Of a stretch of 32,000 bases of DNA, positions 1,374 through 30,578 are shown in pieces. The notes beneath the pieces were generated by a model that searched no databases, had not been told where the DNA came from, and was given only the letters and a program-made list of their open reading frames with translations. The stretch is taken from the NCBI GenBank assembly GCA_003345555.1, contig PRDJ01000035.1, positions 30,001-62,000 of the forward strand, written 5' to 3'. The translations under genes and the position numbers were made by a program. Source of the stretch: Candidatus Thorarchaeota archaeon (GTDB lineage: Archaea; Asgardarchaeota; Thorarchaeia; Thorarchaeales; Thorarchaeaceae). Within the stretch, counting starts at the first letter, position 1. Each line of letters opens with the position of its first letter.

Positions 1374-4340
1374 ATGACGGGCGAACCATTGACTGCACTG
1401 GTCTTAAGACGGTTCGCAAAGGAAGTCAGTGTCGTTGCTGTCATTGCAGCCGGATTCTATCTTGCTACTGTGTCTGCTTGGGATAGCTACCAAACGAACG
1501 TTGATTATCATGCCGTAGTGTCATTTCTCGCGATTTCGTGTGCGTCCGCCTCACTCTTCCAATCAAGGGAAAACCGCTCGCCTCTGACTGTTCTGTTGCT
1601 TTCGGCCTTTCTCTTCTCGGCCATTGTACACATGATTGGTTCCGCCGAGCATCTAGTTGGCGGCCCTTCTCTTATTCCGACTGAGACCCCCATAGACACT
1701 TGCCTCGAGTTGGTTGAGCTGGGCCTTTTTGGAATCACAATCCTTGCTGCTGTGGGTCTTGAACGCAGAGTCTCGGGAGCCTCCAGACATGCCCTCTACT
1801 CTCTTGCATTCTCGGTCACGTTTCTATCCTCTCTAGTGTTTACTGTGATCTGCTGGTTTGTTTGGTCTGGAGTTTGGCAAGTTCTCGTTGTGAGTTACTT
1901 GGCCGCACCGGTGGCTGTTATTACAATGACGCTATCTGGAGTGGTGCTCTTCAGGCGTGTCCCTTACCCGCATGTCACTGACAGATATCGCTTGTTTTTT
2001 GGTCCGGCTCTTTTTGCGCTTTCTGTGGTCCCGTTGATATTCTCGCTGGGGGAAGTAAGGGATCTGTGGGTCCTCTCAGCATTCCTGCAGATGGGCGCAT
2101 TCTTTATCCTATACTTGGCAATGGTGATGCCAGTTCTAAGGGGAATGAATCTTACACGGAGACGAGCCTATTCTATTGCCTACTCGATTTCACTTCTCGT
2201 AGTCGTGCCCTTCTTGGTAACGATATTAGTGATGGCACTTGCGCCAGGATGGACGTTGTTCGATTTTGGAGCATACGCGACATCGCAGATCGGAATTGCA
2301 GTAGTCTTTTGCGTGATGGCCCAACTCCTGTTGTTGTACTCAAGGAGGAGGCCGGATTGGGGCCATAATCCAATCATACTGCTTTTCCTTACCCAGGCGT
2401 TTGTTGAGTTAGTAGGGCTTCTGCTTACCGCAATCACGCCCATAGGAGCTACGTGGTCCTATGTGCCATACATTATAGGCAGTGGAACCGTAACAATCGG
2501 TCTCTTCTTAGCCATAAGGTGGACCACCAAGCCACCTGCACGAGAGAACCCAAGCGGTTCTTGGGTTCTTGCCTGTCTTGTACTAGTCATGCTCCTTTGC
2601 GCTATTGGAGCCGGAGTGGCATGGCTCGTTTTGATACCATATCCTTGGCTATCAGGTAGTCCCGTGGGGTCTGTGATTCTGCTGACCACGAACCTGGTCA
2701 ACGTCTTCGGATTCCTCTATCTCATCTTGATGCTACTAAAAACCTCAAAGACATTGTTTCCCGTGGAAACGAGAGCAGTCGGCTTCCTATCACTATGGAT
2801 TGGGCCGAACATTCTCAGGGCAACATTCCAGGCTTGGTCCGGGGGGTGGTGGGTTTCGGAGTTCATTCTGCTTCTGGGGATGCTAGCTGGTCCAGCCCTT
2901 CTCGGAGCGATGTACATGGAATCGTTTGCTCAGGCGGAAGAATCTCGAAAGAAGGCCACACTCTATGGGGACATACTGGTGCACGATATTGGCAACTATC
3001 ACCAAGCCATACTTAATGCTCTGGAGCTGCTTGAAACCCCAGGTCTTCCTTCGGACATCAGCGAACGGGCAAGGTCAGAAGCTCTTCTTGCCCTAGCTCA
3101 GGCCTCGCAGCTTGCTGGCAACGTGAGACAACTTGCAAGAGCCGATGTGTCTCGAAGAATGGAGCTGGCTCCTGTCGATCTAGTCAGTTGCATCACAGAC
3201 GCCATGAATCAGGCGGCGGCAAATGCTCCAGAACTGGAATCTCACCTTCTCTTCAATCACAATGAACGGTTCTTCGTTGATGCGAACAGCCTTCTCACGG
3301 ATTTGTTTGTCAATCTTTTCCGCAATGCAGCCCAGCATTCTCCCGCCCGAAAGCGAATCGATGTCGAAATTACGCCTACGGCTTTGCGGAGCAAGGATGC
3401 ATGGTCAGTTCGCATATGTGACTATGGCAGTGGTATAGATCCAGAAACAAAAAAGAGGCTATTCAGTCGGTTCATGGAAGGTGCATCCGGCACCGGTCTT
3501 GGCTTGTCAGTAGTGCGGACGCTGACAGAGTTGTTTGAAGGGCAAATCGTTGTAGAGGACAGGGTGCTTGGTTCATATCGAGAAGGATCCGTTTTCACCA
3601 TTACGTTGCCCGCCTCTGTTTCCGCGGCACTTCTCGGGATCAGCATGAGAGGTGGCCTCGAAAGAGCCATGCATGCGGCAATAACGGGACTGTACCCGAT
3701 CATAATTGTGGGGCAAACAAACCAGGTCCCGTTTGCGATTAGTTTCCTCAAAGAGATTGCGTCTCACTTGAAGGAAGTTCAAGCAGGTTACGAGAGCCCA
3801 CTTTCGACTCAATCTCTAGGCAAGTTTGAGATTACTGGTACGACGCAATTGGTGGACAGCAACCTTCCCTCTGCCTTCTTAGTCATTGACTTGACGAGAC
3901 AGCACAGTGAGGGTGGCGCAGCATGCAGGTATTTCTCTCGGATTCTCGAGAAGACACGAGTAGCATCTTATCGCTCTCTGCTGTCGATGATTGACAGAGA
4001 GATTCCTAAGATAGTGAATGCTGCAACGGAGCTTGCACGAATTCTCTCTCTTGACCGGGAGAGCCGCGATCCACATCTGGCCGTCTGGAAGGGCAAGTTT
4101 AACGATGACGAGAAGGATCTGGTCTATGATATCGTCTTAGGGCGAACACACTTAGGCCACGTTCTCAGAGAAGCCGTCAGACGCAATCCATCCTCGGTCG
4201 TAGCAGGCGCTGATGAACGGTTGATTCTTGTGGAAGGCAGAGTGCTGCCCCCTTCTGAGCTGGGACCAAATGAAGCAAGGGACATCGAGAAGAACCTGAC
4301 TGCCGTTCTTGGTATCATCGGGTCTGAAGTGCCTTCCTAG
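1374..4340 (+). CDS. Multi-pass membrane sensor histidine kinase (~16 TM, HisKA, HATPase_c) with C-terminal DENN/folliculin-like domain
   Basis: About 16 hydrophobic segments in the first ~520 aa. H-box LVHDIGNYHQ (His at 2982), N-box LFVNLFRNAAQH, G1 DYGSGI, F-box LFSRF, G2 GTGLGL, then ~230 aa extra domain. The kinase call is strong; the DENN call is inference. Confidence 0.9.
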   Translation: MTGEPLTALVLRRFAKEVSVVAVIAAGFYLATVSAWDSYQTNVDYHAVVSFLAISCASASLFQSRENRSPLTVLLLSAFLFSAIVHMIGSAEHLVGGPSLIPTETPIDTCLELVELGLFGITILAAVGLERRVSGASRHALYSLAFSVTFLSSLVFTVICWFVWSGVWQVLVVSYLAAPVAVITMTLSGVVLFRRVPYPHVTDRYRLFFGPALFALSVVPLIFSLGEVRDLWVLSAFLQMGAFFILYLAMVMPVLRGMNLTRRRAYSIAYSISLLVVVPFLVTILVMALAPGWTLFDFGAYATSQIGIAVVFCVMAQLLLLYSRRRPDWGHNPIILLFLTQAFVELVGLLLTAITPIGATWSYVPYIIGSGTVTIGLFLAIRWTTKPPARENPSGSWVLACLVLVMLLCAIGAGVAWLVLIPYPWLSGSPVGSVILLTTNLVNVFGFLYLILMLLKTSKTLFPVETRAVGFLSLWIGPNILRATFQAWSGGWWVSEFILLLGMLAGPALLGAMYMESFAQAEESRKKATLYGDILVHDIGNYHQAILNALELLETPGLPSDISERARSEALLALAQASQLAGNVRQLARADVSRRMELAPVDLVSCITDAMNQAAANAPELESHLLFNHNERFFVDANSLLTDLFVNLFRNAAQHSPARKRIDVEITPTALRSKDAWSVRICDYGSGIDPETKKRLFSRFMEGASGTGLGLSVVRTLTELFEGQIVVEDRVLGSYREGSVFTITLPASVSAALLGISMRGGLERAMHAAITGLYPIIIVGQTNQVPFAISFLKEIASHLKEVQAGYESPLSTQSLGKFEITGTTQLVDSNLPSAFLVIDLTRQHSEGGAACRYFSRILEKTRVASYRSLLSMIDREIPKIVNAATELARILSLDRESRDPHLAVWKGKFNDDEKDLVYDIVLGRTHLGHVLREAVRRNPSSVVAGADERLILVEGRVLPPSELGPNEARDIEKNLTAVLGIIGSEVPS

Positions 4341-4721
4341 TCGAGTACTCTCTGCCACCGGTCGAAAGAATGTGCACCGGACTCGGTTTCTTTTTCCACA
4401 ATCAGACAAAGAAAACGAGTGCACGTTTGGACTTCTTTGCAGCAAAGGCTGCTGTGACTCCGTGTCACTGGAAGCCACCGCAACCATTATTGGCATCGAG
4501 TGACATGAGCAATCCGCAACGTCCGCTCTTCTTTTCAAAAGATAGGACGGTCGTGGGGAAGTGATTCCACGTGACTTGGCCATCTCGGTGTTTGTCTGGT
4601 ATCGGCTCCGCCATCGGCAATGAGCAGTCTCCGAGCCGGGGGTACTGCCAAGGTAGGTTCACTTCGCTGCCATCAAGGGACAGCAACAGTTATTGACCCC
4701 AAGAACTGTCTCAGTTCAGAG

Positions 4722-7115
4722 ATGCCTGCGAAGAAGTACTACACAGCGTGCTCACTGAACTGCCCAGACATATGCGCGTTCGTGGTTCAAGTAGAGGGCG
4801 GTCGCATTGTCAGACTTGAGGGTGACAGGAACCATCCATACACATTGGGCAGATGCTGTCCAAAGGGTTATGCCCATGTGCTCAGAATGTATTCGCCCGA
4901 CAGGATATTGTACCCTCAGCGGCGTCAGGCTGACGGTACCTTCAAGAGAATCGCTTGGAATGATGCGCTCGACGAGATTGCTGTCGATATTGACGATGCT
5001 CGCAGGAAGTTCGGTGCGCAGTCTGTGGGCATATACTGCGGCTCGGGAAATGATGGGCTAGCCCCTAAGTATGCCAGCAGATTTGCGAACACGCTTGGCT
5101 GCAGAATGATTCCGGGGATTGTCGAAATCTGTTTCGAAGGTGCGTACGAGGGTGCTCGGTTCAATGTCGGCCCTTTTCCTCCTCACGAGCTAAGCGACTG
5201 GGCGAACTCGCGATGTATTGTGGTATGGGGTACGAACAAGTTCGAATCCAGCATTCACTCGAAGAGAGTCATCAAAGAAGCGACCGATCACGGCGCGAGA
5301 CTGATTGTCATAGACCCTCGCAAGACTCCACTCGCAAAGATAGCTGACATCTACACAACCATTAGACCAGGGACTGACGGAGCACTTGCTCTTGGAATTG
5401 CGAATGAGATAATCAAGAGAGACCTGTATGATCACGAGTTTGTCGATAGATACGTTGTCGGCTTCGAGGAGTACAAGCGCAGAGTGGCTGAATACGACAA
5501 GAGGACCGTGAGCGAGATAACTTGGGTGGATGCCAACACAATTGAAGCCATAGCTCACACATTTGCCGTTCACGGACCCGGTCTCTTAATGACAGCTCCT
5601 GCTGGGATGAATCACTATACGAATGGAACTTGGGCCGCGAGGGCAGTGCATAGTCTTCTTGCAATATGCGGCTACTTGGGTGTTTCAGGAGGCGGTTTTC
5701 AGTATCTCTCATCCGATCGCGGTCCCTTCCAAAGCTCTTCGATTACGCTTGCTGACATGCTTCCAAGTTCAGTCAGACCTGTTGTCGAGTCGGGAACGCA
5801 TATTCCGGAATACGTGCTGAGTCATGAGGAATCACCTCTCAAGGTGTTCATCATTCAGGCGGCAAGTCCTATTACTCAGTGGCCGAATACGAAGAAGACT
5901 AGGGCGGCACTTGAGCGAATTCCTCTCAAGGTCTGTATCGATATCGAGATGACCGACACAGCCCGGTTGTGTGACATCGTCCTCCCCGCGACAACATTGT
6001 TCGAACATCATAACTTAATGCACAGCGAACTTCACAGGATTGTCCAATATGCACCGAAGATTGTGGAGCCACCGGGCGAGGCAAGGCATGAGCTGGAAAT
6101 CTGGAAAGGAATCGCAGAGAAGCTCGGGCTTGGCAAGTTCTTCCGACTAACAGAGCTTGATGCGATAAAGCTTGCACTGGGAGGTCATGATTGTGAAGGG
6201 ATTACGCTCGATGAACTTAAGCGGCATCCGGGCGGCATGAGAACTAGGAGTCCGGCTATCCCATTCGCAGATCGCCACTTTCTCACGCCATCAGGCAAAG
6301 TCGAGCTGTATTCCAAAACGTTGGCGAATTTGGGCTATGACCCTTTGCCGTACCACCAGGAGCCAGCTGAAAGCCCTGTATCCACGCCTGAGATTTTCAG
6401 AAACTACCCACTAATCATGATTTCTGGTAGGCTACGGAACCGATTGCACTCACAGTACACTACCGTGGAAGTCGGAGCTGAGGCCAAGGCCTATTCTGAA
6501 TGTACAACTTGTCAGAAGTGTGTCAAAGACTGCAAGGACGAGGCAATATCCCTACAGTCACCCAGCATCGAGATGATTCGCCGGGTTTCTAGCGAGAATC
6601 CAGAGACGCGTGCCAAGATGCGTGAAAAGCTAAGTGAGAGTGTGAAAGGACTTGCCATCACTGGCTCAGAAATAGTGATAGCTATTCCCAACAGCATCAC
6701 TGGACTCCAAGTCCCCATATGGGACCCGGTCAAGTGCATAGGGTGCAGAGAGTGTAATCTGGACATCTGTCCTTTCAAGGTCGTGACGGAACCAATTAGA
6801 ATGCCCTCGATGCTCCAGACCCCTACGCATCGAACGTTCCTGAGGATGAACCCGGTTGCTGCAGAGCGGCTCGGCCTCTCTGATGGAGACTCAGTCCGCG
6901 TGGAATCCATCAGAGGGGCAATCGAGGGTATCCAGCTTGAATTGACAGAAGACATCGATTCCAGGGTCGTGTGGGCATCCGACGGTTGGTGGGAGAGAGA
7001 CGGCAACATTAACCTCCTGACCGATGACAAACACACGGCGTTCGGACACACGCCGGGCTTCAACTCGGTTCTTGTGCGAGTCTCTAGGGTCGAGCACGGT
7101 GCACGTCAGCTCTAG
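4722..7115 (+). CDS. Cytoplasmic molybdopterin (Mo/W-bisPGD, DMSO reductase family) oxidoreductase with inserted 2[4Fe-4S] ferredoxin
   Basis: N-terminal CSLNCPDIC...RCCPKG Fe-S motif; VVWGTN, VIDPRKT, PGTDGALA, DIVLPAT and RLHSQ...MNP.AA.RLGL..GD.V motifs. No Tat signal. Start placed at ATG 4722 (MPAKKYYTAC) rather than 4620, because the Fe-S motif normally lies a few residues from the N-terminus. Confidence 0.9.
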   Translation: MPAKKYYTACSLNCPDICAFVVQVEGGRIVRLEGDRNHPYTLGRCCPKGYAHVLRMYSPDRILYPQRRQADGTFKRIAWNDALDEIAVDIDDARRKFGAQSVGIYCGSGNDGLAPKYASRFANTLGCRMIPGIVEICFEGAYEGARFNVGPFPPHELSDWANSRCIVVWGTNKFESSIHSKRVIKEATDHGARLIVIDPRKTPLAKIADIYTTIRPGTDGALALGIANEIIKRDLYDHEFVDRYVVGFEEYKRRVAEYDKRTVSEITWVDANTIEAIAHTFAVHGPGLLMTAPAGMNHYTNGTWAARAVHSLLAICGYLGVSGGGFQYLSSDRGPFQSSSITLADMLPSSVRPVVESGTHIPEYVLSHEESPLKVFIIQAASPITQWPNTKKTRAALERIPLKVCIDIEMTDTARLCDIVLPATTLFEHHNLMHSELHRIVQYAPKIVEPPGEARHELEIWKGIAEKLGLGKFFRLTELDAIKLALGGHDCEGITLDELKRHPGGMRTRSPAIPFADRHFLTPSGKVELYSKTLANLGYDPLPYHQEPAESPVSTPEIFRNYPLIMISGRLRNRLHSQYTTVEVGAEAKAYSECTTCQKCVKDCKDEAISLQSPSIEMIRRVSSENPETRAKMREKLSESVKGLAITGSEIVIAIPNSITGLQVPIWDPVKCIGCRECNLDICPFKVVTEPIRMPSMLQTPTHRTFLRMNPVAAERLGLSDGDSVRVESIRGAIEGIQLELTEDIDSRVVWASDGWWERDGNINLLTDDKHTAFGHTPGFNSVLVRVSRVEHGARQL

Positions 7116-7145: not shown

Positions 7146-8420
7146 CTATGACCAGAATGGAACTATGATGAACATGTAGACAGTTGCAGTTGCAAGGTGT
7201 ATCAGACCCACCGTCATAGCCAGCTTTATGAATTCGGCCCATGAAATATGACTCTCATTCTCCTCGGCCAATGAGACAACGTACATGTTGGGTGCATCAC
7301 CAAAGGGTATTGTATAACCTCCCATGTTCACACCGGCCACGAGTGATGTTGCGACAATGGGGCTTCCTCCAGGGAATTCCGCGGCCACCGGGGCCATCAA
7401 TGCACCAACTGCAGTCGTATCTAGGATCCCTATTGCAAAGCCTGGTACCCATATGAAGACGAAAGCAGCAATGTACATGTTGCCACCGACAAGAGCAACC
7501 AATCCACCCACTAGGTCGGTGACAACGTTCGTGACCGACAGAGACGCGACGAGACCCAGAAGCCCAACCACAAAGAAAACAGTTTCCCAAGATAACTGCT
7601 GAAGGAGGTCCTTCGCTCTGTCGAATGATATCACCAGCAGTGCGGAGGCAACAAGAACCGCGACCATGGCCGATTCATTCGGGACAAGGATAAGCCCTGC
7701 CATGAGAACGCCCAAGGTGAGTATCGAGAGGTAGAAGTCAAAGCGCGACTTGATCATTACTCTTGGGTCAACTTGGAAGAGTTCGCTTGTCTCGTCGAAC
7801 TTGCCCGGCACCAAGACATCCTTGTAGTAGTTTAGCAGAAACACAATTGTCACAAGCAATAGAATCACTGATAGAGGCATGAGGATGACGAACATTGACC
7901 CAACATCGAGATTGGCGAGGCGAACAATCAGTAAGTTCGGGATGCTACCAATAGGTGTCGGGAGGGAGCCTAGGTCTGCCACTATGATTTCTCCGATTAA
8001 GAATGGCCTGAAATCGATTCCGAGACCACGACAAATCTCAACCGTGAACGTGGCCATTATGATGATTGTCGGGAGAGGAGGAATGAAAGGTGACATGACA
8101 AAAACAATGGTCATGAACACGAGGAAGACTTTGCGAGGGTCGCCTCTCGTACGTTTCGCCAGAATAAGGGCCGTATACTGAAACATGCCGGAGGAACCCA
8201 CGACCGATATTATGATCATCATTGCCATGACAAACAGTATCGTATCCCAGTTCATGGCATTCAGCATCTCAACGAATCCATACCCACCCACTGCATACAA
8301 CACAGCCGCTGCGAGACCCATCGAGAAGAGCACTACTGCCGTGTCGTCGAATTTCTCGATTAACAGCACTACGAGTGTGACAATGAATATAATCAGACAA
8401 ATAATACCTGCAATCTCCAA
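7146..8420 (-). CDS. ArsB/NhaD (IT superfamily, P-protein/SLC13-like) anion permease, paralog 1
   Basis: ~11-12 TM; WDTILF..AMMIII...SSGMF, PIGSIPNLLI and PFGDAPN motifs. TTG start aligns with the N-terminus of paralog 2 (IAGIICLIIF). Confidence 0.85.
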   Translation of the reverse strand: MEIAGIICLIIFIVTLVVLLIEKFDDTAVVLFSMGLAAAVLYAVGGYGFVEMLNAMNWDTILFVMAMMIIISVVGSSGMFQYTALILAKRTRGDPRKVFLVFMTIVFVMSPFIPPLPTIIIMATFTVEICRGLGIDFRPFLIGEIIVADLGSLPTPIGSIPNLLIVRLANLDVGSMFVILMPLSVILLLVTIVFLLNYYKDVLVPGKFDETSELFQVDPRVMIKSRFDFYLSILTLGVLMAGLILVPNESAMVAVLVASALLVISFDRAKDLLQQLSWETVFFVVGLLGLVASLSVTNVVTDLVGGLVALVGGNMYIAAFVFIWVPGFAIGILDTTAVGALMAPVAAEFPGGSPIVATSLVAGVNMGGYTIPFGDAPNMYVVSLAEENESHISWAEFIKLAMTVGLIHLATATVYMFIIVPFWS

Positions 8421-8648: not shown

Positions 8649-9929
8649 TCAAACCAGCGCGGCTACCGCAAAAAGATAGGCTGTCGATATTGCCAGATGG
8701 ACCAACCCGAGCGGCGTGACGGCTTTCGTGAAATCCATCCATGAAATCGGCCCACGGTTCTTCTCGGCTAAGTCCCGAAGATACATGTTAGGGGCATCTC
8801 CAAACGGGATGACATACACTGAGAAGTTCAATCCGGCAACCATTGAGATGGGCACTATTCTGTTCAACGATGCGAACTCCACACTCATGGGCGCAAGAAA
8901 GGCTGCTATAGGGATAGTGTCAAACGCAGACATTACAAATCCGGGCAGCCATATCATCACCAAGATGGCGATGAATACGTTGTTGCCCACGACGGCAGTC
9001 ATTGCTGCCACGAGATCTGTGGAGACGCCTGTCACTTGCAGTGCTGCGACAATTCCGAATAGGCCCACAATGAAAAAGACCGTGTTCCAAGACAGCTGGT
9101 TCAACAGAACCTTAGCTCTCTGGAACGAAATCACCAGCAGTCCTCCGGCAACAACGAGAGCCACGGTCACAGACTCTGTAGGGACGAGTACCAGTCCTGT
9201 TATCAGTACTGCAAGCGCAATAGCTGAGACAAAAAAGTCGAGTCTCGAGCGTATCATGAGTCTTGGCTCTATATCAAAGAGATGGCTGGCTGCAGCGCCT
9301 GGAAGCTGTGCGAAGACCTGTCGGTAGTACCTGAGGAAGTACCAAATTGTCACTCCCAGAAGAAGTAATGACAATGGGAACAGAGTGACGAACATGAGGC
9401 CGATGTTCATTTCGGTGAGGGACACGACAATCATGTTTGGAATTGATCCTATCGGACTTGGTATGGAGGCAGAGTTAGCTACAACAGCCTCTGAGAGCAA
9501 GTATGGTCTGAAATCGATTCCAAGGGAGTTGCATACTTCCGCGGTGAAGGCACCTATTATCAAAATGGTCGGCAGGGGTTGCAGCACGAGCGATACTACA
9601 AATACAAACCCCATGAGAACCATGAATAATCTCCTTGGCTCCCCTCGGGTCCAGCGAGCAAGAACGAGGGCCATATACTGAAACATGCCCGAAGAACCTA
9701 GGACGGATATGATGATCATCATCGCCGCTATGAAAAGAACGGTGTCCCAGTAGATACTACCTAGCATGGCTGTGAAAGCTATGTTGTTGAAGGTATAAAG
9801 CACCAGAGCACATAGTCCCAACGAGAAAAGTGCAACAGCTGTTTCATCAAGTCTGCCAAGCAGTATGACCAGTAAAGTCCCGACGAATATAATCAGGCAG
9901 ATTATCCCGGCTATGTCCATGTCAATCAC
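8649..9929 (-). CDS. ArsB/NhaD-like anion permease, paralog 2 (tandem duplicate)
   Basis: Colinear with 7146-8420 over the full length, with shared blocks SSGMFQY, GIDFRP, PIGSIPN, MI(R/K)SR.DF and IPFGDAPNMY. Confidence 0.85.
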   Translation of the reverse strand: MIDMDIAGIICLIIFVGTLLVILLGRLDETAVALFSLGLCALVLYTFNNIAFTAMLGSIYWDTVLFIAAMMIIISVLGSSGMFQYMALVLARWTRGEPRRLFMVLMGFVFVVSLVLQPLPTILIIGAFTAEVCNSLGIDFRPYLLSEAVVANSASIPSPIGSIPNMIVVSLTEMNIGLMFVTLFPLSLLLLGVTIWYFLRYYRQVFAQLPGAAASHLFDIEPRLMIRSRLDFFVSAIALAVLITGLVLVPTESVTVALVVAGGLLVISFQRAKVLLNQLSWNTVFFIVGLFGIVAALQVTGVSTDLVAAMTAVVGNNVFIAILVMIWLPGFVMSAFDTIPIAAFLAPMSVEFASLNRIVPISMVAGLNFSVYVIPFGDAPNMYLRDLAEKNRGPISWMDFTKAVTPLGLVHLAISTAYLFAVAALV

Positions 9930-11270: not shown

Positions 11271-11702
11271 GTGTCAGCCCAGAAGGATCGTCTGGTTCAC
11301 TTGATTAAGGATGCAAATCTCAGCTCAATCGAAGTCATGAGTGAAGAGCTTGGTGTGAACCAAGAAGAAGTCAGAATGATGTTGCATGAGCTCCTCGAAC
11401 AAGGAGTGCTGAGGGGTCGAATAACTGAAGATGGAATAAGGTTCTTCCAAGATGGCCTGAGAGTCTCGGAACAGCCTTCCGTGTCAGTGAAGGAGAAGGA
11501 ACCACGGTTACTTAAATACAGTACGAAGCCGGGCCGCTACGTGGCAGAGGCAGGTCTCGCAGTTGTCGTGATTTCATATCTGAGTATAGTCATATTCCAT
11601 GGGAATATAGACGTGGAGAACATCGCCGTCGGCATGATACTTGTGGGCCTTCTCTTATTGGCAGCTGGCTGCTATTACGTTGGTCGTCGCAAGACTGTCT
11701 GA
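11271..11702 (+). CDS. Winged-helix (PCI-like) protein with two C-terminal TM helices
   Basis: GTG start; N-terminal SIEVMSEELGVNQEEVRMMLHELLEQGVLRGRI helix-turn-helix-wing pattern; two hydrophobic segments and a basic tail (GRRKTV). Confidence 0.65.
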   Translation: MSAQKDRLVHLIKDANLSSIEVMSEELGVNQEEVRMMLHELLEQGVLRGRITEDGIRFFQDGLRVSEQPSVSVKEKEPRLLKYSTKPGRYVAEAGLAVVVISYLSIVIFHGNIDVENIAVGMILVGLLLLAAGCYYVGRRKTV

Positions 11703-23164: not shown

Positions 23165-23749
23165 TCAGCCCACGAACAGGTCACTTTCTCCACTTTCGGC
23201 CAGCTTCATCATTCGCAGCAGCTCTGTGAATGTATGTTGTATATTCTCACCTGTCTTAGCTGATGTCTCGATAAAGTAGGCCGGCACATTGAGCTTGGCT
23301 TTGAAATACTCCGCAAACTTCCGGCCTTCGTCAGGAGTCACACTGTCCTTTGCCGGGGTTCGTGGTCGGAGGTCCACTTTGTTACCTACTATGACGGTGG
23401 GCGGCAACGGCCCCATGTTGCGGTAGGCTTCCACGAGCCATTTGGAAGCGTTCTCGAATGATCTTCGGTCGACCACAGAGTACACCAAGATGATTCCATT
23501 GCAGCCATGATAGTAGTGGCCTCTGACTTTCTCGAATGTAGGTTGCCCGGCCAAATCCCATATTATGAACTTCACGACTTCGTCCTCGAAGAGTATTCGC
23601 TTTGTCGCAAGGTCAACTCCTATGGTTGCGATATGACCCTCGATGAAGTCCTCTCCTAGGTAATTGCGCCGCATGCTGGTCTTGCCTACGGCACCATCTC
23701 CTATGAGAACTGCCTTCAGAATCCTGCTGCCGTCGTCTTGGTCCTTCAT
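23165..23749 (-). CDS. Rab-like small GTPase (eukaryotic signature protein)
   Basis: G1 GDGAVGKTS, switch I ATIGVD, G3 WDLAGQ, G4 GNKVD, G5 ETSAK; no C-terminal prenylation cysteines. Confidence 0.95.
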   Translation of the reverse strand: MKDQDDGSRILKAVLIGDGAVGKTSMRRNYLGEDFIEGHIATIGVDLATKRILFEDEVVKFIIWDLAGQPTFEKVRGHYYHGCNGIILVYSVVDRRSFENASKWLVEAYRNMGPLPPTVIVGNKVDLRPRTPAKDSVTPDEGRKFAEYFKAKLNVPAYFIETSAKTGENIQHTFTELLRMMKLAESGESDLFVG

Positions 23750-28476: not shown

Positions 28477-28733
28477 TTATCTACGTGACAAAGACGAGTA
28501 CCCTAGCTTGAATCAGGCTTTATTGACTGCTTTTCTTACACAAAACACTTTCTGCGGTAAGGCCTTTCTCGATGGCACCGAGTGCCGTCAAGCCATCCCT
28601 TCTCCAATATGACGCGACTTGTTCGTTATAGACCTACCCGCCGCAAGCACAACAGACAAGTACGCTTGCGATAATTGGTCTTGGCGCATCATTTCACTTG
28701 AGATTCTCAGTATGCGCCGAGGTTCTCAGACAA

Positions 28734-30578
28734 ATGAAGAGTCGGAGTAAGCCCCCCAGCACTTCTGGCACCAAGACGCAGGAGGAGATTCTGCGATACC
28801 ACGCCCTCATTGATAACATGAATGAAGGATTCTGTGTCGTTGACCTCGACTCCAAGATAGTTTACGTGAACAAACGTTTCTGTGGAATGTTCGGGTATAC
28901 CACGGAAGACATGTTTGGTCGGGACGTTCATGAGTTCCTAGACAAACGCAACAGTGGCATATTCGACAAGCACAACAAGAAGAGGGCAAGGGGTCTTCCA
29001 TCGCAATATGAACTGGAGTGGATCACGAAGACCGGTAGAGTGCTTCCGACGCTTGTGTCGGGTGCTCCTCTCGTTGATACGCAAGGTGTTCAACGTGGCT
29101 CGTTTGCAGTTGTCTGTGACTTGACGGAACGTCGAAAGGTGGAAGATGCATCGAAGGCGTCTGAGGCTAAGTATAGGGCTCTAGCAGAGGAGATGACTCA
29201 GGGGCTCGTTATCGTAAAGGATGACAGGTATGTCTACGCAAACAAGGCGTTCGCGGAGATGCTCGGTTATTCGCCAAAGGAGATAGTTGACATGTCCTCG
29301 AGTAAGGCTTGGTCTCTCGTACAGCCTGAGGACCAGGGTATCTTGCGTCAGTATGGAGCGGACCGCCGAGCAGGCAAGAAAGCTCCATCTCACTACAGAT
29401 ATCGCTTAGTTGCACGCAACGGGTCGACTCACTGGGTGGAGGCGTTTGTTACTGAAACTGATTTCGGAGGAAGCCCTGCGTTGCAGGTGTTGCTGATTGA
29501 TGTAACAGAGCGAGTGGAAAGAGACGAAGCTTTTCTTGCTTCAGAGGCGAAATATCGTGCTCTGGCCGAACAGTCAAGCCAAGGAATCATGATAATAGGT
29601 GACGAAGGATTTGCTTACATCAACAAGGCATTCGCCCAGATGGTGGGATACTCTGTTGACGAACTAATGAGAAAGAACATGATTGAGATATGGGACTTGA
29701 TCCATCCCGAAGATCAGCCCGTCGTAATGACGCAAATTCAGAACCTCTTCGCACGAAGGGCCGTGCCGCCTAGGTATCAATACCGTCTAGTTCGCAAGGA
29801 CGGTGAGATATGCTGGGTTGAAGCATTCTCAGGCCCAATTCAATATGAGGGCAAGCAGGCAATCCAGACCATGATTGTGGACGTGACCGAGCGATTGAGA
29901 GTCGAGAGAGCAACAGGCGTCACGAAGGATAGGGCGTCGTTCTACTTGGATGTAATGGGGCATGATTTGAAGAATCAGCTACAGGTTGTTGTCAATAGTG
30001 CGGCACTGTTGCGTATTGCACAAGATGACAGCCGGAAGTCCTCGCTTTTGGAGGTCATTGAGAATGCTGTTCAGAGATGTTCTAGGCTTATAGAGGAGGT
30101 CCGAGCGACAGAACAGCTAATGAGCATCCCCTTGGCAGAGCGGCCGTTGAATGTCGCTTTGAAGGGGTGTGTCCAAGCTATCTCCAGCCGTGTCACAGAT
30201 GCGGTGTTCGAGGCAGTCTATGAAGTGGATGATGCCTGGATCTACGCGGACGGCTATCTTGAGCTGCTGCTTTCCAACATACTCGTGAATGCGGTTGAGC
30301 ACAACCCGAGTTCGGACAAGCATGTTTGGGTCGGACTGAAGGACGACGGTCAGTTCTATGTGGTCTCCATCTCAGACAACGGACCCGGTATTCCTGATTC
30401 GTCCAAGGCCATTCTCTTCGATCCTGCTAGGCGGTTTGGAGGAATGGGTATCCACCAGTCAAATCAGATTATTGAGAAATACAGGGGTAAGATCGACATC
30501 GTGGACAGAGTAGTGGGACATCAAGACATGGGAGCTGAATTCAGAATATGGTTCCCGAAAGCAGTGAGAAGCAGCTAG
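28734..30578 (+). CDS. Cytoplasmic histidine kinase with three PAS/PAC domains
   Basis: Three PAS repeats ending CDLTERR, IDVTER and VDVTER; H-box MGHDLKNQLQ; NILVNAVEH; DNGPGIP; short GGMGI G2 box. Start probably ATG 28734 (track gives TTG 28698). Confidence 0.92.
   Translation: MKSRSKPPSTSGTKTQEEILRYHALIDNMNEGFCVVDLDSKIVYVNKRFCGMFGYTTEDMFGRDVHEFLDKRNSGIFDKHNKKRARGLPSQYELEWITKTGRVLPTLVSGAPLVDTQGVQRGSFAVVCDLTERRKVEDASKASEAKYRALAEEMTQGLVIVKDDRYVYANKAFAEMLGYSPKEIVDMSSSKAWSLVQPEDQGILRQYGADRRAGKKAPSHYRYRLVARNGSTHWVEAFVTETDFGGSPALQVLLIDVTERVERDEAFLASEAKYRALAEQSSQGIMIIGDEGFAYINKAFAQMVGYSVDELMRKNMIEIWDLIHPEDQPVVMTQIQNLFARRAVPPRYQYRLVRKDGEICWVEAFSGPIQYEGKQAIQTMIVDVTERLRVERATGVTKDRASFYLDVMGHDLKNQLQVVVNSAALLRIAQDDSRKSSLLEVIENAVQRCSRLIEEVRATEQLMSIPLAERPLNVALKGCVQAISSRVTDAVFEAVYEVDDAWIYADGYLELLLSNILVNAVEHNPSSDKHVWVGLKDDGQFYVVSISDNGPGIPDSSKAILFDPARRFGGMGIHQSNQIIEKYRGKIDIVDRVVGHQDMGAEFRIWFPKAVRSS

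Follow-up and report, generated by a model that had tools for sequence, protein, structure and literature searches.

The solved complexes of folliculin with FNIP2 and of C9orf72 with SMCR8 display pairing between the DENN domains of the two partners. SMCR8 acts as an ARF GTPase-activating protein (GAP) through its own longin domain, together with C9orf72, and DENND1A and DENND1B are guanine nucleotide exchange factor (GEF) modules for Rab35. In Asgard archaea, as the original prediction for the locus described here had stated, DENN-like domains have already been published: the searchable text of Liu et al. (bioRxiv 10.1101/2020.10.19.343400) describes DENN domains, folliculin-like longin + DENN proteins, a Roadblock/GTPase/DENN operon and "other" DENN architectures, as well as fusions of NPRL2-like longin domains with two-component parts (Fig. 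5c), and argues that growth control in Asgard archaea still revolves around two-component systems equipped with sensors of the eukaryotic type. Here, we describe a gene at 1374..4340 (+ strand) of a 32,000-nucleotide stretch of a Candidatus Thorarchaeota archaeon genome (assembly GCA_003345555.1, contig PRDJ01000035.1, positions 30,001 to 62,000), hereafter the window, whose predicted 988-residue product combines a membrane sensor histidine kinase with a C-terminal domain of the folliculin/SMCR8 type. The concept is the same as in the longin/two-component fusions described in that text, namely a GTPase-regulator domain of eukaryotic type joined to prokaryotic two-component parts, with a longin domain there and a DENN domain here. 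The searchable literature text yielded no reference to a fusion between a histidine kinase and a DENN domain, a scope that does not extend to Fig. 5b of Liu et al.

The gene was delineated from the open reading frames and their translations and ends with a stop codon at 4338-4340. It opens with an integral-membrane sensor region (residues 1-515, 1374..2918, +), in which a hydropathy scan revealed about 14-16 hydrophobic segments and whose ESM Atlas features resemble those of MASE3/MASE4 clusters (score 0.92), a resemblance that we treat as a lead only. The DHp/dimerisation helix region follows (2919..3290, +) and was assigned from motif positions and NCBIfam alignments; its putative phospho-accepting residue, His537 (codon 2982-2984), lies in the motif HDIGN, 22 residues past the last transmembrane segment, and the alignments to the NCBIfam kinase models CreC, ChvG and PhoR start at residues 514-582. 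Pfam HisKA gave no match in the 988-residue protein. The HATPase_c catalytic domain (residues 640-747, 3291..3614, +; Pfam PF02518, E 6.5e-20) displayed the N box at 647, the G1 box DYGSG at 683, the F box at 697 and the G2 box GTGLGL at 706. Together, these assignments show that the gene encodes a predicted multi-pass membrane sensor histidine kinase in which the H, N, G1, F and G2 motifs are intact. The last strand of the ATPase domain, FTITLPAS, runs to about residue 749, beyond which 239 further codons are open (nucleotides 3621-4337), a run whose chance occurrence we estimate, for uniform codons, at about (61/64)^239 = 1e-5. The claim of a complete HATPase_c with a frame open far beyond FTITLPAS was thus borne out. 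The protein has been deposited, with an AlphaFold Database cluster of its own and an entry in the ESM Atlas, where HATPase_c is its sole annotation.

To the region beyond the catalytic domain (residues 750-988), no Pfam family could be assigned even at E 10, nor any NCBIfam model or Response_reg, and a phmmer search of the tail against the PDB gave no sequence match. Modelling of the tail with AlphaFold2 on an alignment of 20 relatives (A1) reached a predicted local distance difference test score (pLDDT) of 87.3 and a predicted template-modelling score (pTM) of 0.86. The modelled elements comprise a helix at model residues 13-22, a strand at 27-30, a helix at 35-47, strands at 55-57, 71-74, 87-90 and 95-97, and helices spanning 103-196, the same order of secondary structure that had been proposed from the sequence. 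We compared this model exhaustively with 48,161 PDB chains using VIA-align, a comparison independent of Foldseek. The six best matches were exclusively DENN proteins, with Z scores of 9.0-11.9 over 164-179 aligned residues: folliculin (6nzd_H, 11.9; 3v42, 11.8), DENND1A (11.8), DENND10 (11.2) and SMCR8 (10.6 and 9.0). Model residues 1-176 superposed on folliculin 347-558 with a root-mean-square deviation of 3.3-3.4 A over 168-169 residues, and the next-best fold in the same comparison was the FlaI ATPase core (Z 7.4, 129 residues). Foldseek searches returned SMCR8, folliculin, C9orf72 and DENND10 from the PDB, each at probability 1.0 and with SMCR8 first (E 9e-4), and SMCR8, folliculin, DENND10 and DENND11 from the Swiss-Prot models, while the AlphaFold Database cluster matches carried the names "Folliculin/SMCR8 longin domain-containing" and "UDENN FLCN/SMCR8-type". 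In the ESM Atlas, the first match was a cluster of 380-residue Heimdallarchaeota proteins (TM-score 0.64), 23% of whose members contain PF11704, followed by SMCR8 and DENN clusters.

These structural comparisons support the original proposal of a cDENN alpha/beta core followed by a helical dDENN part in the manner of folliculin, with folliculin, SMCR8, DENND1 and DENND10 as the nearest structures. They place the domain, as modelled, at residues 750-945 (3621..4208, +). The statement that the tail is not a receiver domain likewise held, and a hybrid histidine kinase with a CheY-like receiver tail is ruled out by the absence of Response_reg together with the DENN-only top structures. Because of both the fold and the homology to Asgard folliculin-like proteins set out below, the last ~240 residues are shown, at the level of the predicted model, to form a divergent DENN domain of the folliculin/SMCR8 type without a longin lobe. 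We consider the identity of the two parts, kinase and DENN, to be very likely correct.

The closest structural counterpart is the C-terminal DENN domain of folliculin (3V42; 6NZD, 6ULG, 8DHB), which likewise consists of an alpha/beta core with helices after it. The two share an identity of only 10-12% with no profile-level sequence match; the membrane histidine kinase stands in the place of the longin lobe, an extra C-terminal hairpin and helix are present in the archaeal protein, and no FNIP-like partner is known for it. The SMCR8 DENN domain of the C9orf72-SMCR8-WDR41 complex (6LT0, 7MGE, 7O2W) matched with Z 9.0-10.6 over 177-183 residues, but SMCR8 carries a longin domain and the kinase-DENN protein does not. 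The same difference applies to the DENND proteins, which retain the longin lobe: the Rab35 GEF modules DENND1A/DENND1B (6EKK, 3TW8) and DENND10 (8P0V) matched with Z 11.2-11.8 but at 4-13% identity. No longin (uDENN) lobe was detected elsewhere in the same polypeptide, residues 1-749 being occupied by the membrane sensor, DHp and HATPase_c regions. The DENN domain is followed by an extension of residues 946-988 (4209..4337, +; columns 201-271 of A1), modelled as a beta-hairpin (strands 202-204 and 207-209) and a helix (216-230).

In sequence searches, the relatives of the tail were Asgard proteins of 360-570 residues whose N-terminal half is longin-like. The tail matched 360-390-residue Asgard proteins at E 1e-5 to 5e-23 in single-sequence searches, an iterated search likewise linked the tail to such proteins, and more distant DENN relatives were found in Lokiarchaeon CR_4. 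One relative passes the gathering score of Pfam Folliculin (PF11704) with 23.8 against 23.3 bits, and the N-terminal half of another resembles Asgard longin/Roadblock clusters, again a lead only. The residues 946-988 extension is also present in the nearest longin-DENN relatives (P0006, P0007 and the Lokiarchaeon CR_4 proteins), but not in the shorter Asgard relatives. The tail is a sequence homologue of Asgard longin + DENN proteins, the kind described by Liu et al., which are soluble and contain no kinase domain. With the profile of the 20 relatives, the best eukaryotic match was SMCR8 723-755 at a sub-threshold E of 0.54, covering the equivalent helix-strand-helix. A representative search also returned a 2774-residue protein (P0005, E 2e-40), which we rejected as a repeat-driven phmmer false positive, since it is a Cna_B repeat protein with 22 short repeated stretches, and a related-locus search with the whole protein returned only an unrelated Syntrophobacterales kinase fragment. 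The relative P0007 (558 residues, with transmembrane, longin-like and DENN parts; JGI sample 3300042731) is encoded two genes from a 330-residue HATPase_c protein, and this neighbourhood may represent an unfused kinase/DENN association.

The fusion recurs in related genomes, a point on which the original prediction had asked for a check. Each of the four genomes of the genus has the architecture, while the family's remaining 82 genomes lack it, and it also occurs on JGI, ENA and Logan metagenome contigs. Orthologues measure 996-1040 residues, comprising proteins of 996-1008 residues and open frames of 1001-1040 residues in all three sister genomes, and align colinearly across the kinase/tail junction as single tblastn segments; the junction DNA (3560-3720) is ordinary sequence, and no stand-alone copy of the fused type of DENN was found in the genus. 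Identity among orthologues amounted to 34-64% in the DENN part, 43-67% in the membrane part and 58-81% in the kinase core, and between sister genomes the kinase-DENN gene is 46% identical compared with 72-77% for the flanking genes. The gene is a fast-evolving sensor in a conserved neighbourhood, and its tail evolves fast, yet the frame stays open and foldable. A maximum-likelihood tree united the fused DENN domains in one clade (support 97/93), with two metagenomic longin-DENN proteins, P0006 and P0007, as its sister group (98/97), which points to a single fusion event. The other parent is also recognizable: multi-pass membrane kinases of ~760 residues, homologous to residues 11-750 at 22-34% identity, occur in 74 of the 86 family genomes. 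They share the layout of membrane sensor, DHp and HATPase_c, none carries a DENN tail, and these tail-less paralogues, one of them in this genome (G000:C69:6291-8024), end at about residue 750, right past the ATPase domain. Taken together, these comparisons show that the fusion arose once, in one Thorarchaeota genus, through attachment of the DENN half of a folliculin-like longin-DENN protein from Asgard archaea to the C-terminal end of a kinase from the ~760-residue family common in that group.

By analogy with characterised DENN proteins, the domain would serve as a protein-docking module that couples the membrane-bound kinase dimer to small-GTPase machinery; the docking partner would be either a GTPase of the Rab/Arf/MglA-like kind or a regulator of the longin or Roadblock type. 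The signal state of the sensor would then influence the site at which a GTPase switch is engaged, or if it is engaged at all. The coupling might run in either direction, from kinase to GTPase or from GTPase to kinase, and conventional phosphotransfer to a response regulator would probably continue in parallel. We hold this explanation, taken as a whole, to be an even proposition, and the coupling to GTPase machinery by itself, with its direction left open, to be plausible at close to even chances. A more specific form, in which the sensor state or His537 phosphorylation would gate DENN recruitment of, or exchange on, a Rab/Arf/MglA-like GTPase at the membrane, so that a two-component kinase would provide receptor-to-GEF coupling of a eukaryotic kind, appears unlikely. 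In DENND1B, it is mainly the C-terminal DENN lobe that contacts Rab35, and the C-terminal part of folliculin by itself displayed Rab-GEF activity in vitro (PMC3747258). Since the C-terminal lobe of DENND1B makes most of the Rab contacts, binding of a Rab-like GTPase by an isolated DENN lobe is conceivable in principle. The published Asgard fusions of GTPase-regulator longin domains to two-component modules likewise speak for such coupling.

The genome offers many candidate partners, with 16 Ras-superfamily and 13 Roadblock matches. The original prediction had pointed to a Rab-like GTPase in the window, and such a gene is indeed present 19 kb away from the fusion (23165-23749, - strand; Pfam Ras, E 1.7e-42), but no specific link between the two emerged: orthologues that are 68-89% identical occur in 83 of the 86 family genomes, most of them without the fusion, and in two sister genomes the orthologue lies on a different contig from the kinase-DENN gene. 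As a core gene of the family that is unlinked in two sister assemblies, it is unsupported as the partner. Elsewhere in the genome, an operon (G000:C50:6502-9031) encodes a tandem-Roadblock protein of 336 residues, a 306-residue protein and an MglA/Arf-like GTPase of 204 residues, with overlapping stops and starts, and is conserved in 84 of the 86 family genomes. The alpha/beta core of the 306-residue protein, in a poor model (pLDDT 55), matched DENND10 (Z 12.3) and folliculin (Z 10.5) best, and the operon is probably of the Roadblock/GTPase/DENN type of Liu et al. A profile comparison of A1 with the 306-residue protein aligned only the first helix-strand-helix (E 0.0014, probability 17%), and a complex prediction for the DENN tail with this protein yielded a score of 0.07 against a mark of 0.32, which weighs neither way.

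The prediction had further noted that the window contains no response regulator and had suggested signalling through GTPases rather than, or as well as, through such a regulator. The first part was correct, and no response regulator was found beside the orthologues in the sister genomes either; signalling in place of a regulator is not indicated in view of the sister receivers and a contig end. Although PF00072 had no match in this 93.5%-complete genome, the sister genomes each contain 2-6 receiver genes, none of them adjoining the kinase-DENN gene, and contig C55 of the present assembly starts exactly at the downstream edge of a sister's receiver/kinase cluster (91% DNA identity). For both of these reasons, the receivers missing from this genome probably fall in an assembly gap. 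The argument that the DENN domain must be the output for want of a response regulator is rejected on these grounds.

Several observations weigh against the coupling of the kinase-DENN protein to GTPase machinery. The tail gave no significant sequence-profile match to DENN, Folliculin_C, SMCR8_C or solved DENN proteins. No GTPase, longin or Roadblock gene adjoins the kinase-DENN gene in five lineages, and no GTPase or Roadblock neighbours were found at three loci of distant longin-DENN relatives. The response regulators of the sister genomes make a classical output available, and the molybdenum oxidoreductase and permease neighbours described below fit an ordinary metabolic sensor. The longin lobe, missing here, supplies 6 of the 21 Rab35 contacts of DENND1B, or about a quarter (PMC3747258), and it is also the lobe that holds the GAP arginine of folliculin and SMCR8 (PMC12290439). 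Because the longin lobe with this arginine is absent, folliculin-type GAP activity by the kinase-DENN protein alone is unlikely.

The gene neighbourhood bears on the first of the alternatives. Downstream of the kinase-DENN gene lies a conserved molybdopterin (bis-PGD) oxidoreductase (4620..7115, +), followed by two CitMHS/ArsB-type permeases (7146-8420 and 8649-9929, both on the - strand), all assigned by Pfam. The order of a divergent GNAT acetyltransferase, the kinase-DENN gene, the oxidoreductase, the two CitMHS permeases and an M29 peptidase is kept in three sister genomes and a JGI contig, and the oxidoreductase and both permeases lie downstream of the kinase-DENN gene in five lineages. 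In Lokiarchaeon CR_4, too, the tandem DENN genes have a divergent CitMHS permease gene next to them (L027:11647-13104). The DENN domain might then be a structural or scaffold module that is independent of GTPases, either pairing with its counterpart within the kinase homodimer or docking to a non-GTPase partner such as a neighbouring permease or the oxidoreductase, with phosphotransfer to a distant regulator as the only output. Histidine kinases are obligate dimers, and DENN-DENN pairing is seen in the solved structures of the folliculin and SMCR8 complexes, which head the fold-search results; the conserved oxidoreductase and permease neighbours, the permease beside the CR_4 genes, the response regulators of the sister genomes and the lack of any GTPase linkage in the neighbourhoods examined also argue for such a module. 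By contrast, all characterised DENN-family proteins act on or with small GTPases (PMC3747258, PMC12290439). The adjacency of the permeases may be due to chance, since CitMHS permeases are abundant, with three in the window alone, and two other relatives lack a permease neighbour. On balance, we consider a GTPase-independent module somewhat unlikely.

A second alternative reverses the roles, in that the DENN domain would be an input: the binding of a longin or Roadblock protein, or of a GTPase in a particular nucleotide state, would switch the autophosphorylation or phosphatase activity of the kinase, and GTPase status would be relayed to a response regulator. Only ~10 residues link the catalytic domain to the DENN domain, which is therefore well placed to restrain it, and the intact kinase motifs and the receivers of the sister genomes are consistent with such a relay. 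The Asgard longin/two-component fusions are likewise read by Liu et al. as eukaryote-type sensors that feed two-component systems. The protein, however, already possesses a very large membrane sensor region, and direct evidence of a binding partner is lacking, so that we regard an input role as doubtful.

It is very improbable that the tail is instead a degenerate P-loop-type nucleoside triphosphatase or another nucleotide-binding alpha/beta domain unrelated to DENN: its core does superpose on FlaI, GspE and AAA+ ATPase cores (Z 5-7.4), and the conserved G31 after strand 1 and D90 at a strand end (alignment A1) recall Walker-like positions, but the DENN matches score higher by 2-4.5 Z units and extend over 164-179 residues, including the helical part, compared with 85-129 for the ATPases, residues 750-988 contain no Walker A motif (GxxxxGK[ST]), and the sequence relatives have folliculin-type longin domains. 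That the fusion is artefactual, through loss of a stop codon, a frameshift or chimeric assembly of two genes, an idea in favour of which we found no supporting point, is excluded for practical purposes because the architecture recurs in four separately assembled genomes and in the JGI, Logan and ENA assemblies, the junction alignments are colinear, the fused domains form one clade and tail-less paralogues exist, to which the conserved synteny and the lack of a stand-alone copy in the genus can be added.

Other features of the window were noted in passing. Direct reading of the sequence revealed a T-rich tract, TTTCTTTTT (4386..4398, +), 46 nucleotides past the stop codon, which may possibly act as an archaeal terminator between the kinase-DENN and molybdopterin oxidoreductase genes. 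Further downstream, a 143-residue protein (11271-11702, +) displayed a weak match to the PCI (winged-helix) family and is found in the same syntenic block in three sister genomes. A second histidine kinase (28698-30578, +; 626 residues) comprises three PAS domains, a weak HisKA and HATPase_c, and has no adjacent receiver.

Asgard archaea possess many eukaryote-like small GTPases together with longin, Roadblock and DENN regulators. A conserved fusion of a DENN domain to a kinase that appears, from its motifs, to be active provides an expressible object with which two questions can be asked, whether Asgard DENN domains bind GTPases and whether two-component sensing connects to GTPase switching. 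The fusion also shows that a DENN lobe can stay under selection without a longin partner. Even if no link to GTPases exists, the kinase-DENN gene would still represent a clean case in which domains of prokaryotic and of eukaryote-type signalling have been shuffled together, limited to one genus of Thorarchaeota.

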